This document shows, piece after piece, positions 175 through 8,335 of a stretch of 8,335 nucleotides of DNA. Location: assembly GCA_048938295.1 (NCBI GenBank), contig JBHLMI010000049.1:1-8335 (forward strand), written 5' to 3'. Made by a program: the position numbers and the translations under genes. A model generated the notes under the pieces. It did not search any database and was not told the origin of the DNA. It saw only the letters and a list, made by a program, of their open reading frames with translations. Source of the DNA: Promethearchaeota archaeon (GTDB taxonomy: Archaea; Asgardarchaeota; Hermodarchaeia; Hermodarchaeales; Hermodarchaeaceae). Every line of letters begins with the position of its first letter. Position 1 is the stretch's first letter.

Positions 175-648
175 TTAGATTGTCTTAAGGTCAGCTTCGA
201 TCATTTCACGGGTTTCCTTTTCTTCAACTTCGGCCATAGCCTGTTTCGCAAGCATGAGATACTTGTCTTTGTTTTTTCTGTCGCCTTTCACTTTATATCC
301 ACGGGCGAGCGCTTCGTAGGCATAGGCAAGGTCCCAGTCCTTGATACCTTCCTTTTCACAGATATCGAGGTATGTCTTACCATAATGAATGGCTCGATCT
401 CCATCGCCGAGGACGGCATACACACGGGACAGCTGCCAGTCACCACGGCCAAGGTTAATAGGTGTGGCATCCCATCCGTTTTCAACACGGACTCCCCAAT
501 GATATCGCGAAGCATGAGACGAGTTGACCATCGCATCTTTTTCTTCACCGGTAAGGTCCTTTTTATCCAAATAGCTCCAAGTGTTGTTGAAGAGGTCAAC
601 AGCCATCTTTCTGTGCCATTTTTCAAGAGTGAGTTCTTCATCTGCCAT
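175..648 (-). CDS. Conserved hypothetical alpha-helical (TPR-like) protein, 157 aa
   Basis: ATG at 648 with GGAGGT SD at 657-662. Motifs HRKMAVDLFNxTW, HASRYHW, RGDWQLSRVYAVLG and DWDLAYAYEALAR resemble a widespread uncharacterised prokaryotic family with helical-repeat patterning. Confidence 0.85.
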   Translation of the reverse strand: MADEELTLEKWHRKMAVDLFNNTWSYLDKKDLTGEEKDAMVNSSHASRYHWGVRVENGWDATPINLGRGDWQLSRVYAVLGDGDRAIHYGKTYLDICEKEGIKDWDLAYAYEALARGYKVKGDRKNKDKYLMLAKQAMAEVEEKETREMIEADLKTI

Positions 649-802: not shown

Positions 803-912
803 CGGAACCGTGCTAACACTGAAAGAGCAGCTAGGCAGTCCGACTGAAATAAATATCGGAAGCCTGGGCAGGGAGTTCACGAGCAATAAAGAGCTAGTGG
901 AGATCGGAGAAG

Positions 913-1680
913 ATGATTAAAGCCATATTCATCGTGCTCAACGGTGCTTACGCATTTTCAAGGCAGTACACCGACAAAATTGACCCACACATGCTCTCCG
1001 GACTGCTAACTGCGTTTCGGGTTTCATCGAAGGAATTTGCCACTGGCGAGTTTCGGCAAGCTAAATTTGAAGGCTCCGAAGTCGTGGTTGACGGACTTAC
1101 TGAACGGCCAAATGACTTTGTAGCAATCTTTGCGACCCCAGATGAGCGCTCCACGGATTTAACCAATCTGATGGCCCTCATTAAAACAGCTTTTATCAGC
1201 GATTACGGCGATCGCATCCATACTTGGAATAGTTTACAGGGACCCTTTGCAGACTTTGAACCCACCATTGACCAATTGATCGCCGGATGTATTTGGTGTG
1301 ATACCGAAGAAATAATGGAGCCACCAACAGTTACCTTCACCACGGATCTGATGCCAGCTAAGGAAACGGTGTATCGCGGCAACTCTCTCAACATCAAATA
1401 CTTCATCCACAATAGTAGCAGCAAGTCCATCTACCTAACTGCCATTGTCAACGCCATTCCACACCTGTTCGAACTGGACGGGTTAACCAAGAATGTGATC
1501 CTTCGCAGCACTGCGTTCCTCCGCAACCAGCAACTTAAGCCTAACGAAGCCCATGAATCCATCATCCCCATCAAAGCACGGCGAATCGGGCACACCGAAG
1601 TCGCCCCGATTCTTTTCATCACCCAGGGCAATCAAGCGTTTACTGTACTGGGTGAAAATCGTGAAATGGACATCATCTAG
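913..1680 (+). CDS. Longin-domain protein with a C-terminal Ig-like beta-sandwich domain (Asgard-type), 255 aa
   Basis: aa 1-125 follow the longin order b-b-a-b-b-b-a-a (IKAIFIV, YAFSRQY, DPHMLSGLLTAF, FRQAKF, EVVVD, FVAIFA, LMALIKTAFISDYG, W-N...FADFEPTIDQLI), typical of Asgard longins. aa ~139-255 show Ig-like patterning (YRGNSLNIKYFIHN...LKPNEAHESIIPIKARRIG). GGAG at 899-902; an in-frame stop at 895-897 fixes the start region. Confidence 0.8.
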   Translation: MIKAIFIVLNGAYAFSRQYTDKIDPHMLSGLLTAFRVSSKEFATGEFRQAKFEGSEVVVDGLTERPNDFVAIFATPDERSTDLTNLMALIKTAFISDYGDRIHTWNSLQGPFADFEPTIDQLIAGCIWCDTEEIMEPPTVTFTTDLMPAKETVYRGNSLNIKYFIHNSSSKSIYLTAIVNAIPHLFELDGLTKNVILRSTAFLRNQQLKPNEAHESIIPIKARRIGHTEVAPILFITQGNQAFTVLGENREMDII

Positions 1681-1997: not shown

Positions 1998-3368
1998 CTA
2001 TTGAATCAACTCTATCATATGCACTGAACAGCTTATGCAAGGGTCGTAGGCTCGGACGAGTGGCTCAAGTTTTTGTGCTACGGTGTTGTGGCTTTCTGGT
2101 GCGGGTTTGAGGAGCTCGGGGAGGAGTTCTTGGGCTTTGGCTTGGATGGCGTGTTCAATGGTGCGGACGTTTTGTCCGGTGGCGATCATGCAGTTGACTT
2201 TGGTGATGATGCCCTCGTCGTTGGTCCAGTAGTTGTGGAAGAGAGTACCGCGGGGGGCTTCGACGACACCGACGCCTTCGCCAGCACGGGGTTCGGTGGG
2301 GACGCGGTAGTTGTCTTCTTGAAGGGTGGAATCTTCGATGAGAGTGATAGCCTGTTCGACTGCGCTGACTAATTCGGTGGAACGGGCGAGGTTATAGGCG
2401 ATGGGGTCGTGGACGGGTTTACTTACAAATAGCTCATAGAGTTGATCGTGGTACCCTTGAGCGAGGTCGCTGGCCATTTGTTTGGCGACATTGAGTCGGG
2501 CGAGGGGGCCGACGCGATAGTTGCCTTTGTCGGGTCCGAGGTCTTTAATGAAGGGGTATTTGACGGTGGTATAGGGCATAGCGTCTTCGGCAATGTATTT
2601 CGCGTAATCTTTGGGCAAAAAGTCGTGAAGTTTCTTTCCTTCGGGGGTGATGAAGCGGAGCGTACCATCATAGATATCATGGACCCCCTTATTGTGCAGA
2701 CCAAGGTAATGGGTTGGGTCACTAAGATAGTAGCCAACCTTGTTGTCAGCTTTCGGGGCGAGTTTAAAATAGAGATCTGCAATAGCTTGAGCGGTTTTCA
2801 AAGCTTTGGGAGCTTGTTTGGCTAATTTATCGCGTTCTTCTTCGGGTAATGGTCCAGCCATCCCCCCTGGAACAGCTGTGCAGGGGTGGATCATGCGTCC
2901 TCCAACGGCTTTGATGATGTTTTGGCCGAACATCCGTAGTTCGATTCCGACCTTGGCAAGTTTGGGATCCTTTGCAGCCACTGCTAAAACGTTTGGAGTG
3001 TCGGGAGTGAGAAAATCTGGTAGCGCTAGGTAGACTTGATGAAGGGCGTGGCTATGGATGTATTCGCCAAAATTTTCAAGGTGGCGAAGCTTGACAGCTT
3101 GTGCTGGTGGTGTGACGCCCCAGGCTGCTTCGACCGCCTTGACTGAGCCGAGATGGTGGGCAACCGAACAGATTCCACAAATCCGTTCAGAGAGTTGGGG
3201 AGCATCTTCGGCGGGAATGCCTTCCATGAAACGTTCGAACATCCGTGGGGATTCGATAATGTGGAAGTGGCATTGGTTAAGTTTGCCACCGCTGACATCT
3301 AACGTGATTTTGGCGTGTCCTTCCAGGCGGGTCATGGGTTCGAATTCGATGTGTTTGGGTTTACTCAT
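1998..3368 (-). CDS. mvhA: [NiFe]-hydrogenase large subunit (MvhA-like, group 3), 456 aa
   Basis: N-terminal EPMTRLEGH, L1 motif RICGICSVAH, GVGVVEAPRGTLFH, and L2 motif RAYDPCISCSVH plus a 6-aa tail. The true start is ATG 3368 (ATGA overlap with the mvhG stop; GGAGTGA SD at 3376-3382), not 3545. Confidence 0.93.
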   Translation of the reverse strand: MSKPKHIEFEPMTRLEGHAKITLDVSGGKLNQCHFHIIESPRMFERFMEGIPAEDAPQLSERICGICSVAHHLGSVKAVEAAWGVTPPAQAVKLRHLENFGEYIHSHALHQVYLALPDFLTPDTPNVLAVAAKDPKLAKVGIELRMFGQNIIKAVGGRMIHPCTAVPGGMAGPLPEEERDKLAKQAPKALKTAQAIADLYFKLAPKADNKVGYYLSDPTHYLGLHNKGVHDIYDGTLRFITPEGKKLHDFLPKDYAKYIAEDAMPYTTVKYPFIKDLGPDKGNYRVGPLARLNVAKQMASDLAQGYHDQLYELFVSKPVHDPIAYNLARSTELVSAVEQAITLIEDSTLQEDNYRVPTEPRAGEGVGVVEAPRGTLFHNYWTNDEGIITKVNCMIATGQNVRTIEHAIQAKAQELLPELLKPAPESHNTVAQKLEPLVRAYDPCISCSVHMIELIQ

Positions 3369-4246
3369 TTTTTCCTCACTCCTTTCCGTAAGTTGTCGAG
3401 TTTGGATGAAGCGTAAGTGTACCGGGCAAAGGTTCCAGCAAGGCGGGGTAATTTGAAGTTGGCAATTTGGTCCTCTTCCATTGCCGCTAATGCGTCCAGC
3501 ATAGCGACTCCTTGGTCCCAGACGGTTTCCGAGGGACCGCGGCAACCGGTACAGGGCATGTTACGACGGGTGCATTCGGCATTACAACCTGCGCGGGTGG
3601 CAGGGCCCATGCAAAGAAAGCCTTGAGAGAGGAGACAGGTTCCGGGTTCAGGAATTTCATGGGTGCGCCGCAGCTGTTTGGGTTTCTCGGTTAATCGTTC
3701 GAGGGGACACTCGTCACAGATGCTTTTCTTGGAAAGTTGGGGTGTTTCTCCGGCTAGTAGAGTAGTAATTACTTTGGCGATTTCATCAGGGTGGGGAGGA
3801 CAGCCTGGGATGACGAAATCAACTTTGACAACGTCACTGAGGCGAAGGTCGGCGGGAAGGACTTGTGGCACATTCTCGTGGGGAACCATCTTCTGCGCCA
3901 TTAGCACTGTTTTATGATATACATACTCAACACCTTCTTGGGCGTTGAAGGTATTAGCGAGGCCATTTACTCCGCCGTGGGCTGAGCAGGCGCCAAAGGC
4001 AATAAGGAATTTTGCTTGTTTACGCATGGCTTTGGCCATTTCTTGGTCGTGGTCTGTGCGAATACTGCCTTCGATAAGGGCTACGTCAATGTTAGGGGGT
4101 ATCGGGTTCTTAGTGTCTACAATGGGATAGGAGTAGACGATTTCGACGTCTTTGAGCAGGTCGAGGAGAGCTGTACCAGTATCGAGTAACGCGATGTGGC
4201 AGCCACTACAACCGGCCATACCCATGGTTGCGATGCGGACGGTCAT
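3365..4246 (-). CDS. mvhG: F420-non-reducing [NiFe]-hydrogenase small subunit, 293 aa
   Basis: GCSGCH, EGS, FGACSAHGG, PGCPP, SICDECP, CLLSQGFLCMGPATRAGC and CTGCRGP Fe-S motifs. Start is ATG 4246 (ATGA overlap with the mvhD stop; GAGGTGA SD at 4254-4260). Confidence 0.93.
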   Translation of the reverse strand: MTVRIATMGMAGCSGCHIALLDTGTALLDLLKDVEIVYSYPIVDTKNPIPPNIDVALIEGSIRTDHDQEMAKAMRKQAKFLIAFGACSAHGGVNGLANTFNAQEGVEYVYHKTVLMAQKMVPHENVPQVLPADLRLSDVVKVDFVIPGCPPHPDEIAKVITTLLAGETPQLSKKSICDECPLERLTEKPKQLRRTHEIPEPGTCLLSQGFLCMGPATRAGCNAECTRRNMPCTGCRGPSETVWDQGVAMLDALAAMEEDQIANFKLPRLAGTFARYTYASSKLDNLRKGVRKK

Positions 4247-4719
4247 TCGCACTTCACCTCTGGTTTCATTTTCTTCAGCGGATTAGGCCCCAGTTTTAAA
4301 ATTCGTTGATAAAACGACGAGGTAGTTTCTACCCATCTGTTAGCCATCCCTGCGCTCATTAGTTCAAAAATTAGACGACCACCGAGTCCAATGTCTTCGA
4401 GATCTTGTGCCAATTTCTGCATCCGCTTTTCAGCGTGGTAGTTTCCCGTGACGAAGTGGCATTGATCTTTAAGACAGCCAGTTACCATGACACCATCCGC
4501 GCCTTCTCGAAGGACTTCAAGTACATGGAGCGGATCAACTCGACCTGAGCAGGGAACACGGATGATCTCCACATTCACGGGATAGGACAGTTTACTGGTT
4601 CCAGCAAGATCAGCCGCGCCATAGGAGCAATAGTGGCAGCAGAAGCTAACGATTCGTGGCTCAAAAGCCGGTTTGGGCTTTGCCAATGCTTTTACAGATT
4701 TCGTTTTGCTTTTACTCAT
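4243..4719 (-). CDS. mvhD: [2Fe-2S] hydrogenase delta subunit MvhD/FlpD, 158 aa
   Basis: FCCHYCSYGAADLAG, RVPCSGRVD, EGADGVMVTGC and CHFVTGN motifs. The ATG overlaps the hdrA TGA. There is a Lys-rich N-terminal extension. Confidence 0.95.
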   Translation of the reverse strand: MSKSKTKSVKALAKPKPAFEPRIVSFCCHYCSYGAADLAGTSKLSYPVNVEIIRVPCSGRVDPLHVLEVLREGADGVMVTGCLKDQCHFVTGNYHAEKRMQKLAQDLEDIGLGGRLIFELMSAGMANRWVETTSSFYQRILKLGPNPLKKMKPEVKCE

Positions 4720-6704
4720 TTTTTAGATGCCCCTATATTGGCTAGAAGGCCTTCAATTTGAGAGTAAATCTGTTTGTCGCGGTAGTGTCGGAGTTGAATG
4801 GCTTCGGCGGGACATTCGACGACGCAGATACCACAGCCTTTACAAGCAACTTCAATGGTTTTGGCGACACCGCCTTCCATGTAGATGGCACTGTATGGAC
4901 AGACCGCGTAGCAGTTGGCACAGCCGATACAGAGGGATTCATCGACGATGGATTTAGCAAGATCCACTTCAACTTCTCCTTTGCTCATTGGGATGGCGGC
5001 ATGAGAAGCTGCAGCAGCACCCATGAAGGAGGATTCAGCGATGTCTCGTGGACTGCTGCAAGCGCCAGCGAGGAAGATCCCATTGGTTGTTGTGTCAACT
5101 GGTGCGAGTTTCAGATGATATTCTCGGAAGAATCCATCTAAATCCACTTCTAAATTCAGGGTATGGGCGAGTTCCTTGGCTCCGCTGTCGGGAATCATGG
5201 CGGCGGATAAGACGAGTAAATCTACGGGGAATTGCTCTTGCGTGCCGTTATGATGGTCGACGGTCAGGTTCAGACTCTTGCTATTATCCTCTTTGACATC
5301 TGTAATATCTGCACGATGGAATTTTACACCTAGACGTTGTGCATCCAGATAATAGCGTTCATACTCTTTACCTTGGAGCCGAATGTCTTTGTAGAATATA
5401 GTAACCTGGGTGTCGGGCCAATGTTCTTTAATGTAGACTGCATGTTTCATCGCGACTTGACAACAAACGCGGGAACAGTGAGAATAGTAATTCGGGTCAC
5501 GACTGCCAACACACTGAATCATCCCGACCCTTTTTGGTAATTTCTTATCCGAAATACGTCGTAGTTGTCCGTCAGTAGGACTCATAGGATCGAGGATTCG
5601 GGCAAGCATGAATTGAGAAATGACATTGGGGAATTCGCCATACCCATACATTCCTTCTGGTTTAAAAACATCATAACCTGTGGCAACAATCACTGTCCCC
5701 ACATTAATATCGGTATCTTTTGGTTGTTCGTCAAGATGAATCGCGTTGACTGGGCAGATTTGTTCACATTTGCCACATTTCGTGCAGGTATCAAAATCAA
5801 TCACAGGGGCTCTTGGAACAGCTTGAGGATAGGGATAGTAGATGGCTTTCCGATTGGCTAATCCATAATTATGTTCGTCGGGAACTTCAACCGGGCAGAC
5901 CTCCATACATTTGCCACAGAGCGTGCAAGTATCGATGTCCACACCCCGAGGTTTGCTATGAAGTCGAGCTTGGAAGTTACCAATATAGCCACTAAATTGT
6001 GTAACCTCCGTTTGTGTATACACGTTAATTTTAGGGTCATTGAGAAGGATCCGCTTTGACAAACATTTACGCGCCATTTCTCCATGGCGCGGTGGAACAC
6101 AGACTCCGCAAGTATCAGTCATGAAGACGAAGCCTAATTGTGCTGATTTTCCACCAAGTGCTGGACTACGTTCAACCAGATGCACTTCATAACCATTATC
6201 AGCGAGAAGTGTTGTTGCTGTAATTCCAGCGATTCCTGCTCCAATGATCATACAAACGGGAGGTACTTTTTGTGTTGTTGAGCCAATGGGTTCAAGTTCT
6301 GCTGCGCGATAGACTCCAGCACGGATGAGGTCTTTAGCTTTCTCTGTTGCTTTAGCGTAGTCGTCTTTTTGTTTCATGTGAGCCCAGGAGACTTGTTCGC
6401 GAATATTGACCATTTCAAAAAAGAAGGGATTGATTCCGGCCTCTAATACGGTTCGACGGAACGTGGGTTCATGTAATTTTGGACTACAAGATGCCACAAT
6501 GACGCGATTAAGCTTATGTTTCTTGATGTGCTTTTTGATGATATTTTGCCCTTCCTCTGAACAGGTAAAAAGCTGCCATCCAGCATAAGCAACATGAGGA
6601 AGGCCCTTTGCATATTCAGCAACGGCAGGAACATCAACAACTTTGGCAATATTGGTACCACATTTACAGACAAAAACACCGATTCGTGGTTTTTCGATCG
6701 TCAT
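4716..6704 (-). CDS. hdrA: Heterodisulfide reductase subunit A-like flavoprotein (complete, stand-alone), 662 aa
   Basis: N-terminal GVFVCKCGTNI and CSPKLHE, FAD-binding IGAGIAG, inserted 2x[4Fe-4S] domain (CTLCGKCMEVCP, CTKCGKCEQICP), QCVGSRD...CSRVCC, LAGACSSPRDI, and C-terminal ferredoxin (CIGCANCYAVCP, CKGCGICVVECP). True start is ATG 6704 with GGAGG at 6713-6717. Confidence 0.95.
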   Translation of the reverse strand: MTIEKPRIGVFVCKCGTNIAKVVDVPAVAEYAKGLPHVAYAGWQLFTCSEEGQNIIKKHIKKHKLNRVIVASCSPKLHEPTFRRTVLEAGINPFFFEMVNIREQVSWAHMKQKDDYAKATEKAKDLIRAGVYRAAELEPIGSTTQKVPPVCMIIGAGIAGITATTLLADNGYEVHLVERSPALGGKSAQLGFVFMTDTCGVCVPPRHGEMARKCLSKRILLNDPKINVYTQTEVTQFSGYIGNFQARLHSKPRGVDIDTCTLCGKCMEVCPVEVPDEHNYGLANRKAIYYPYPQAVPRAPVIDFDTCTKCGKCEQICPVNAIHLDEQPKDTDINVGTVIVATGYDVFKPEGMYGYGEFPNVISQFMLARILDPMSPTDGQLRRISDKKLPKRVGMIQCVGSRDPNYYSHCSRVCCQVAMKHAVYIKEHWPDTQVTIFYKDIRLQGKEYERYYLDAQRLGVKFHRADITDVKEDNSKSLNLTVDHHNGTQEQFPVDLLVLSAAMIPDSGAKELAHTLNLEVDLDGFFREYHLKLAPVDTTTNGIFLAGACSSPRDIAESSFMGAAAASHAAIPMSKGEVEVDLAKSIVDESLCIGCANCYAVCPYSAIYMEGGVAKTIEVACKGCGICVVECPAEAIQLRHYRDKQIYSQIEGLLANIGASKK

Positions 6705-6708
6705 TTTC

Positions 6709-8335
6709 CTAGCCTCCAGTACTCGCTTTGATATTTGCAACCGCTTTTCGAGCAAAGGCAGCAAACTCCTTTGCATCGCGTCCGATTAACTGTGCAACTT
6801 GAACTTTGTTTGGATTCAGACCTGATTGGGCGAGAAGATTTCGGACGACCTGAGCCCGGCTGTTTGCCATTCGAGCTCCACGTCCATAATGACAGAGTTT
6901 TGAATCACACGCAAAAAGAATCACACCATCAGCACCAGCTTCAATCGTCTGAAGAAGTTTAGGTGCGGATATACTGCCTGTACATGGAACTTCAAGAATG
7001 TGTAGATCAGCAGGATAGTGAAGGCGTTCCTCACCTGCTTCATCAATAGCGCGGTAAACACATTCATTACAAGCGAATCCGACGATTAGGTTCTCGGTTC
7101 CTTCAACACTATTACTTAACAAACCCTGGAGCGCAGAATCAATCACTGTGGGATTCGTATTAAGTGGTCCAATAGCCCCCACAGGACAAATCGCCATGCA
7201 TTCGCCACACGCTTGACAGCGAACTTCATCTACAACAACACAATTCCCTTTAGCATCTAGGGATATCGCTTGGGAAGGACAGGCAGAAATGCAAAGCCCA
7301 CATCCATTACAAAGATCTTTATTCACAACAGCAGTATCCAAAGCCTTGGTCATCGATTGTGTAGCCAGCCATACCGATGCCTGCTCTGCCGCCGCACCAG
7401 CGAGCTCCACCGATTCCGGAATATCCTTGGGGCCGTGACACGTGCCTGCAAGATAAACGCCATTAACATCGGTTCGCGCTAATGCTACTTTTTCATCCAA
7501 GGCTTTAAAGAACCCGAGTGAACCTATAGGTACACCGAACATCTTAGCAAGTTCTTTGGTTCCCGGTGAAGGAGTCATTGCACAGGAGAGGACCACTAAA
7601 TCAGCTTCAATGGATTTCATTACACCATCCGGATCAGAGTATTTTACGACGGGTCTATCATTGGCACGACTAATTTCGACAGTATCACCACGGTAAACAA
7701 CTTTGATATTATATTCTTCACAGGCACGCACATAGAATTCATCAAAGCCCTTTCCACCGGCCCGGATATCCCGCGCTACAATGGTGATGTCAATATTCGG
7801 ATCATATTCAAGTTTTGCCAGTTCAGCATGCTTAATCGCAGCCATACAACAATAGGCTGAACATTGCCAGCTAAACCGCTCATCACGACTCCCCACACAT
7901 TGTATCATCACAATATTCTCAGGCTTACGACCATCGGAGGGCACCTCCAATTTCCCACCAAAGGGCCCAACGGAGTCCATCATTCGAATAAACTGCATTT
8001 GCGTAATTACATCCGGGTTCTCCGCATAATGCAACTCTGGAACCACGGAGGGATCAAATTCCTTGAATCCCGTGGCAAGAATCACGCTGCCCACCTGCAC
8101 TTGAACTGTCTCATCCTTCATCTCATAATCAATAGCATTCGCCGGACAGATCTTTTCACACACTCCGCATTTATCGGTGGTCAGCTTCTTACAATGTGCA
8201 GCATCAATTGTAACCTTCCGTGGCACACTCTGAGAAAACGGCATATAGATGGCTTTCCGCTTCGCTATCCCCCACGACCAATCATCGTCAACTTTGGTCG
8301 GACATTTCTCGATACACTGCATGCATCCTGTGCAC
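6709..8335 (-). CDS. hdrA: HdrA-MvhD fusion protein (QmoB-like architecture), 5'-truncated by the window edge
   Basis: The frame is open to the edge (CTGC precedes MQCIEKCP, completing a CxxCxxCxxxCP motif), so the M at 8322 is internal. It contains ATGFKEFDP, QCVGSRD...CSAYCC, LAGTCHGPKDI and two C-terminal ferredoxin motifs, then an MvhD domain (~7095-6712: FACNEC, VPCTGS, GADGV, CDSKLCHYGRG). Confidence 0.93.
   Translation of the reverse strand, partial: CTGCMQCIEKCPTKVDDDWSWGIAKRKAIYMPFSQSVPRKVTIDAAHCKKLTTDKCGVCEKICPANAIDYEMKDETVQVQVGSVILATGFKEFDPSVVPELHYAENPDVITQMQFIRMMDSVGPFGGKLEVPSDGRKPENIVMIQCVGSRDERFSWQCSAYCCMAAIKHAELAKLEYDPNIDITIVARDIRAGGKGFDEFYVRACEEYNIKVVYRGDTVEISRANDRPVVKYSDPDGVMKSIEADLVVLSCAMTPSPGTKELAKMFGVPIGSLGFFKALDEKVALARTDVNGVYLAGTCHGPKDIPESVELAGAAAEQASVWLATQSMTKALDTAVVNKDLCNGCGLCISACPSQAISLDAKGNCVVVDEVRCQACGECMAICPVGAIGPLNTNPTVIDSALQGLLSNSVEGTENLIVGFACNECVYRAIDEAGEERLHYPADLHILEVPCTGSISAPKLLQTIEAGADGVILFACDSKLCHYGRGARMANSRAQVVRNLLAQSGLNPNKVQVAQLIGRDAKEFAAFARKAVANIKASTGG

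Follow-up and report, generated by a model that had tools for sequence, protein, structure and literature searches.

A longin and Ig-like two-domain protein of one Asgard archaeal genus, predicted to dimerize through its Ig-like half

The window (the whole 8,335-nucleotide stretch of DNA that was analyzed) carries on its forward strand a complete gene for a 255-residue protein, P0001, which opens with an ATG and closes with a stop codon (Table 1). Divergent from it lies a 157-aa gene (175-648, minus strand) that adjoins the P0001 gene throughout the genus, gives a weak TPR_12 match, and has unnamed small proteins, mostly bacterial, as its closest Atlas clusters. On the other side, the minus strand from 1998 to 8335 holds a co-oriented series encoding an mvhA-like [NiFe] hydrogenase large subunit, a small subunit (Oxidored_q6), MvhD/FlpD, an HdrA-like flavoprotein, and an HdrA-MvhD fusion that continues past the end of the window. 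The mvhA open reading frame is listed as 515 aa, with a TTG start well upstream of the start found in its 457-466-aa homologs.

A word-indexed search with the 255-residue protein recovered 24 clusters of near-full-length homologs that were 65-90% identical to it and, with few exceptions, of exactly its length; they were labeled Thorarchaeota, Promethearchaeota, or Hodarchaeota or bore no label. Fifteen orthologous DNA copies gave a median pairwise dN/dS of about 0.06 (0.04 in the N-terminal half and 0.10 in the C-terminal half), with synonymous sites close to saturation. On the basis of the homolog clusters and this ratio, we conclude that the open reading frame is a real gene under strong purifying selection. 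A Shine-Dalgarno-like motif stands just ahead of the start codon and may function as such; scans for sigma-70 promoters and terminators, which are ill-suited to archaea, returned nothing above shuffled sequence at this gene. In a hydropathy scan, no 19-residue window reached a Kyte-Doolittle value of 1.8, which agrees with an earlier statement that the protein has neither a signal peptide nor a transmembrane segment. Because it has no such hydrophobic segment, the product is predicted to be soluble and cytosolic.

Table 1. Coordinates and basis of the features discussed in the text
Feature	Coordinates	Strand	Basis or remark
Complete CDS, P0001	913..1680	+	255 aa; 24 homolog clusters; dN/dS 0.06
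GGAG, Shine-Dalgarno-like motif 4-7 nt before the ATG	906..909	+	Seen in the sequence; putative function
Longin domain, residues 1-132 (beta1-beta2-alpha1-beta3-beta4-beta5-alpha2-alpha3)	913..1308	+	Models, structure matches, family profile
G-C-x-W-C-D, residues 125-130, start of the interdomain linker	1285..1302	+	Alignment; invariant Cys pair in the genus clade
Ig-like beta-sandwich, residues 135-255	1315..1677	+	pLDDT 80-94; DUF11, CARDB, MG, TRAP, and transglutaminase structure matches
Predicted homodimer interface strands, block 1, residues 174-205	1432..1527	+	ipSAE 0.57 vs best control 0.00
A-R-R-I-G-H-T hairpin, residues 222-228, invariant	1576..1596	+	Alignment; outside the predicted dimer interface
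Predicted homodimer interface strands, block 2, residues 231-249	1603..1659	+	Complex prediction; interface conservation
L017 and the next gene	G000:C61:59088-60619		Candidate longin-GTPase operon pair
L023 and the next gene	G000:C32:23633-24972		Candidate longin-GTPase operon pair

The full-length AlphaFold2 model, built on a 27-row alignment, had a mean pLDDT of 74, and in it residues 1-124 formed a beta-beta-alpha-beta-beta-beta-alpha-alpha unit of only moderate confidence (pLDDT 57-71). A separate model of residues 1-135, for which a 37-row alignment including paralogs and relatives from other Asgard families was used, reached a pLDDT of 79.5 and a pTM of 0.74 with unchanged topology. For both models, DSSP assigned strand 2-9, strand 12-18, helix 25-39, strands 48-52, 55-61, and 69-74, and helices 80-102 and 113-129. 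Structures were searched with VIA, which is independent of Foldseek, against 48,161 PDB representatives, and longins headed the result for residues 1-132: Sec22 (Z 12.5), SYBL1 (12.3), and VAMP7 (12.2) were followed by synbindin and the TRAPP subunit chain 3cue_A (11.1) and by AP sigma (10.4-10.7), with further matches to zeta/delta-COP, SRX, sedlin, and BLOC-3. The alignments with solved longins spanned 110-128 residues at Z 10-12.5 and 9-13% identity, and Sec22b gave TM scores of 0.66/0.69. The structural Z values were tied, and no longin subtype was clearly favored.

In Pfam, P0001 alone matched no significant family, whether searched whole or as separate halves, and its full-length profile found no match in the PDB by sequence. 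The profile of the N-domain family matched PDB entries for Bet5 (5.6e-4), SRX (1.3e-3), and MON1 (1.4e-3) as well as MglB and AP-3 sigma (range to 6e-3), and paralogs of the N-domain gave Pfam matches, mostly below curated cut-offs, to Fuz_longin_1 (five members), Clat_adaptor_s (three), and Longin (two). The longin assignment thus appears to have sequence support at the level of the family. On the basis of the models and structure matches, we assign residues 1-132 to a longin domain, in line with the preliminary description, which had taken the N-terminal half to be a longin of Asgard type.

A roadblock/LC7 identity for this half was considered and rejected. In roadblock/LC7 domains an N-terminal helix comes before any strand, and only one helix closes the C-terminal end; the chain of P0001 enters a strand at residue 2 and closes the domain with two helices, and roadblock structures matched over only 100-110 columns with TM scores of 0.45-0.57 by query length. 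Arg17 is invariant in the close family and is often Arg or Lys in paralogs. The longin-type GTPase-activating proteins FLCN and NPRL2 have a catalytic arginine finger and a DENN or NPRL2-C partner domain, and Pfam detected neither of these partner domains in P0001.

The C-terminal half was modeled with higher confidence, residues 140-254 forming an all-beta sandwich at pLDDT 80-94. With residues 135-255 as the query, VIA returned transglutaminase barrels, macroglobulin domains, TRAP subunits, cohesins, and pilins, tied at Z 10-11.4, and the AFDB clusters and ESM Atlas gave mostly DUF11/CARDB proteins. Tightest of all was the match to an unnamed domain found in archaeal ATPases of the KaiC-like type (rmsd 1.3 Å over 112 residues). 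An ESM Atlas feature search scored only 0.78-0.90, which provides leads at most. By sequence, the DUF11 and CARDB families (PF01345 and PF07705) had no match at E <= 10 among 14 members of the C-domain family, the C-domain profile found nothing in the PDB, no C-domain paralog was found in the same genome, and aligning the C-domain with the P0026 DUF11/DUF7507 repeats in hhalign gave a probability of 7.8%. A CtaG_Cox11 identity was rejected: the match was obtained for 9 of the 14 C-domains, with a best E of 9e-4 that falls below the cut-off, the CFCF copper motif of Cox11 is missing, and the match is read as a common strand pattern. We assign residues 135-255, from the models and structure searches, to a single Ig-like sandwich of the generic DUF11/CARDB/macroglobulin/TRAP structural class, without detectable sequence relatives. 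The earlier proposal that the C-terminal ~115 residues make up a cytosolic Ig-like sandwich was thereby borne out, and the two patterns on which it drew (G156-x-x-L-x-I-x-Y-x-I-x-N167 and L208-x-P210 ... I220-x-A222-x-x-x-G226) are present. The further likeness that it saw to TRAP-beta, DUF11, and TRAPPC13-type Ig domains held in part: there is structural resemblance to DUF11 and TRAP proteins, but TRAP-beta and TRAPPC11 occur only inside a generic list. The result comes close to the outcome that the preliminary description had considered damaging, namely a C-terminus that matches only generic extracellular CARDB or S-layer repeats, in that the class is structurally the generic DUF11/CARDB one with Z values tied at 10-11.

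The two-domain architecture has a narrow distribution. When 400 Asgard genomes were searched, the full-length longin-Ig form was found in all 14 genomes of one genus and in no other. One of these 14 genomes carries the ortholog (G105:C5:16550-17289) in two overlapping frames, broken at residues 94-97 by either a frameshift or an assembly error. In the remaining Asgard genomes only residues 1-125 matched, within open reading frames of 200-370 aa, and the relatives of this kind that were fetched from other Asgard families were longin-Ras/Roc/P-loop fusions or had C-terminal parts without assignment. Outside the genus, the architecture was seen in two metagenome clusters (P0025 and P0032, here termed clade 2), both derived from metagenomes of Guaymas and of hydrothermal vents. 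When 1.84 billion representatives were searched exhaustively with HMMER, P0001 gave only five matches: its own cluster; P0025 (258 aa, 42% identical to P0001); P0026, a DUF11/DUF7507 repeat protein that matches residues 110-197 marginally (E 4.4e-5); and two relatives of the N-domain, namely P0027, a 300-aa longin-Roc/Arf GTPase fusion with 32% identity to the N-domain over 123 aa, and a 134-aa stand-alone protein with a weak Pfam Longin match. A profile search added just the other clade 2 cluster, P0032. The longin-Ig protein is specific to one Thor-type Asgard genus. Since the architecture is confined to this genus and the two metagenome clusters, we conclude that it is a late lineage-specific fusion and not an ancestral layout.

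These results bear on the idea, put forward in the preliminary description, that P0001 is a trafficking subunit of a proto-adaptor or TRAPP-like kind, whose layout either has a specific relationship to mu-adaptin/delta-COP or joins a TRAPP longin to a TRAPPC13-type Ig domain. In Foldseek, both domains are indeed covered by alignments with chains of AP2 mu and COPI delta (E about 1e-5), TRAP subunits are the top Foldseek matches to the C-domain, a TRAPPC11 entry appears at rank 24 in the AFDB clusters, and Pfam TRAPPC13_C is matched at E 0.11 in 2 of the 14 members. The mu and delta alignments, however, have an rmsd of 17-24 Å and TM scores of 0.24-0.35, and whole AP2 mu scored Z 10.0 (rmsd 17.4 Å) compared with 10.6 for sigma2, which is a longin only, so the sandwich adds nothing to the mu match. 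The mu-homology domain (Pfam Adap_comp_sub) comprises ~270 aa in two beta-sandwich subdomains, whereas the P0001 C-domain is one sandwich of ~120 aa whose structural neighbors form a tied generic list. For the TRAPP small subunits (Bet5/Trs23/sedlin), P0001 has no Pfam Sybindin or Sedlin_N match, and its structural Z values to them (10-11) are tied with those to other longins. The restriction of the architecture to a single genus and two metagenome clusters also speaks against the proposal, as does the finding of no coat or TRAPP genes nearby; in the P0001 loci examined there was no Bet3-like gene. The parallel with mu-adaptin and delta-COP comes down to the order of the domains, and the results do not support tying P0001 to adaptor, COPI, or TRAPP complexes, the sandwich being generic and the architecture limited to one genus and two metagenome clusters. 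We consider such a specific relationship to be very improbable.

The order in which the 157-aa TPR-like gene, the P0001 gene, and the convergent mvhA follow one another was retained at all 14 genus loci examined. Within the same genus clade, the only two cysteines of P0001, Cys126 and Cys129, form an invariant CxWC motif just past the last longin helix, and His103 and, within the A-R-R-I-G-H-T hairpin, His227 are likewise invariant. In clade 2 all four residues are replaced together in both proteins, the A-R-R-I-G-H-T hairpin is not conserved, and the longin-Ig gene is not near a hydrogenase. At both clade 2 loci (L016:4429-7005 and L048:3-2749), a gene for a 511-572-aa Peptidase_C25-like protein with TSP3 repeats precedes the longin-Ig gene in the same orientation; a homolog of that peptidase-like gene occurs elsewhere in the genome under study, unlinked to the P0001 gene. 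The conserved order, the invariant Cys and His residues, and their joint loss from a clade that does not adjoin a hydrogenase are what one might cite for P0001 as an accessory factor of the adjoining Mvh-type [NiFe] hydrogenase/HdrA cluster, with the CxxC and His residues as its metal or redox site. Against this, the P0001 gene is convergent with mvhA and not co-transcribed with it, synteny within one genus at 65-90% identity carries little weight, and unrelated genes occupy the position beside mvhA in the sister genus; moreover, to our knowledge neither the longin nor the Ig-like fold occurs in hydrogenase maturation. We regard a role of this kind as highly unlikely. Because neither clade 2 nor the sister genus shares the synteny, the hydrogenase neighborhood is treated as inherited gene order and not as a functional link. 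His103, Cys126, Cys129, and His227 could possibly form a metal or redox site.

Complex prediction for two copies of P0001 gave an ipSAE of 0.57 (0.59, 0.57, and 0.53 in separate runs) compared with 0.00 for the best control. The runs agreed in at least 46% of contacts, and the partner pLDDT was at least 76. The score mark used for dimers is reached by 20 of 30 proteins solved as one-chain pairs and, among 23 proteins solved as single chains, by one; this calibration applies only approximately to the present prediction, which used a custom alignment. The predicted interface is symmetric, and all of it falls within residues 174-249, in the Ig-like domain. Positions conserved at 90% or more made up 15 of the 23 interface residues and 37 of the 98 residues elsewhere in the Ig-like domain (Fisher p = 0.02), an enrichment that is weak and not significant by the Mann-Whitney test. 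These predictions support, but do not prove, dimerization of P0001 through its Ig-like sandwich, and a dimer of this form would bring its two longin domains next to each other.

An HMM of the N-domain found 13 further copies in the same genome. Two of them (L022 and L024; E 1e-8 to 3e-7) are longins fused to Arf/Roc-type GTPases. Two others, L017 (the closest paralog) and L023, are each followed on the same strand, 57-66 nt downstream, by a Ras/Rab-like GTPase gene, and their C-terminal parts of ~135 aa align with each other and look helical rather than sandwich-like. L026 and L028 carry wHTH domains, and L029 (G000:C46:22670-26866) is a single-pass surface protein of ~1400 aa with a transmembrane segment at 1155-1187 and a cytoplasmic longin tail at 1214-1345, the most distant of the 13 (E 3e-4). 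The other paralogs have C-terminal parts without assignment. A second giant open reading frame (G000:C6:41325-45491) gave a marginal longin match (E 0.011). Fusion and neighborhood thus suggest that this type of longin is tied to small GTPases at the level of the family. At every locus examined, the stretch within 8 kb of the P0001 gene is free of GTPase, roadblock, and longin genes, and for this reason binding of a GTPase or other partner by P0001 itself is an inference; 33 Ras-family and 14 roadblock matches in the genome are candidate partners.

The reading that we favor, and to which we assign an even chance, is that P0001 is a soluble longin module, dimerized by its Ig-like domains, that acts on a small GTPase or a longin partner. 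The Ig-like domains would pair face to face as a symmetric homodimer and present the two longin domains, which together would serve as a binding or regulatory platform of a GEF-, GAP-, or scaffold-like kind; its partner, encoded elsewhere in the genome, would be a small GTPase or a further longin or roadblock protein. In this proposal the dimer is a predicted one, and the binding of a GTPase or other partner is surmised, as is the function as a whole. Weighing against it are the lack of GTPase, roadblock, and longin genes nearby, the missing Pfam match of P0001 alone, a predicted dimer that leaves out the longin domain, the weak conservation enrichment at the interface, the moderate confidence of the N-domain in the full-length model, and the rough calibration of the complex score.

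A scaffold that does not act on GTPases is possible but rather unlikely. Here the longin would pair with another longin or roadblock module, such as the cytoplasmic longin tail of a giant surface protein, or serve generic interaction or sensing, and the Ig dimer would cross-link two partners of this kind. Consistent with this alternative, the ~1400-aa surface protein encoded in the same genome has a paralogous cytoplasmic tail, other paralogs carry wHTH domains and not GTPases, and the P0001 gene has no adjoining GTPase gene. The receptor tail, however, is the most distant of the paralogs, whereas the closest ones are those linked to GTPases. A bolder version of the GTPase-directed reading makes P0001 a minimal analogue of mu-adaptin in layout that arose independently, in which the Ig dimer would bind a partner or cargo, the longins would dock Rab/Arf-like GTPases, and a Cys2His2 set (His103, Cys126, Cys129, and His227) would staple or redox-gate the domains in the genus clade. 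We judge this quite improbable; if true, archaea would offer a simple and tractable model for an adaptor under GTPase control.

In eukaryotes, the regulators of Rab, Rag, and Arf have longin and roadblock domains as their underlying platforms. Asgard archaea have dozens of these domains, and P0001 adds a small, soluble, and probably dimeric member that should express easily and could be used in vitro to pair an Asgard longin with its GTPase or other partner. It has no bearing on the origin of adaptors, COPI, or TRAPP, because the fusion is young and limited to one genus and the sandwich is of a generic class. The main yield of the analysis is that an over-reading has been corrected and the extent of the longin paralog family in this genome has been documented.

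P0001 shares with mu-adaptin and delta-COP the order of parts (an N-terminal longin, a linker, and a C-terminal all-beta domain), and Foldseek aligns both locally; it differs in having one 120-aa Ig-like sandwich and no Adap_comp_sub match in Pfam. With eukaryotic longins (Sec22b/VAMP7, the sigma and mu-N adaptins, zeta/delta-COP, TRAPPC1/C4 (Bet5/Trs23), SRX, and MON1) it has the topology in common, at Z 10-12.5, but it lacks a SNARE motif and partner subunits, and the resemblance stays at 9-13% identity without membership at the Pfam level. TRAP-beta (SSR2) has a signal peptide, a lumenal Ig domain, and a C-terminal transmembrane anchor, whereas P0001 has no hydrophobic segment and its Ig-like domain comes after a cytosolic longin. 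Domains of the DUF11/CARDB/DUF7507/TRAP-beta/macroglobulin type are the best structural class for residues 135-255, and P0026 provides the marginal sequence match noted above; DUF11/CARDB-type domains are, however, mostly extracellular repeats, whereas the sandwich of P0001 is single, predicted to be cytosolic, and unmatched in Pfam. Known longin and roadblock platforms dimerize through the longin or roadblock domain itself, whereas in the predicted P0001 dimer the longin domain is not part of the interface.

The nearest comparisons are to be found in Asgard archaea themselves. The roadblock/longin superfamily has been reported to comprise about 130 orthologous groups in these archaea, where longin-GTPase fusions were also described, along with many lineage-restricted architectures that were ascribed to domain shuffling (bioRxiv 10.1101/2020.10.19.343400). 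Longin fusions are common and lineage-specific in Asgard archaea (PMC10933270; bioRxiv 10.1101/2020.10.19.343400), and longin/roadblock dimers have been described as GTPase platforms (PMC10933270). The Asgard longin-GTPase (Rag/Arf/Roc-like) fusions resemble P0001 in their homologous N-domain, fold, phylum, and habit of lineage-specific fusion; P0001 differs in carrying an Ig-like sandwich in place of the GTPase, in having no fused or adjacent GTPase, and in a dimer that is predicted to form through the added domain. ESCRT-related Asgard proteins combine longins with adaptin-appendage (Ig and TBP), Ig-like, and Vps28-C domains (PMC10936438) and are alike in joining a cytosolic longin to Ig-like modules, whereas P0001 is a minimal two-domain protein without Vps28-C, TBP/platform, or TPR parts; appendage domains are absent from the listed top structural matches of its C-domain. 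That Asgard longins are shuffled with many partners, Ig-like domains included, was already known (bioRxiv 10.1101/2020.10.19.343400; PMC10936438). P0001 is one more lineage-specific shuffle of an abundant Asgard domain and not a forerunner of adaptors or TRAPP. In view of the published longin shuffling, fusions, Ig-like combinations, and GTPase platforms, we conclude that it is a new architectural variant among the known Asgard longin proteins.
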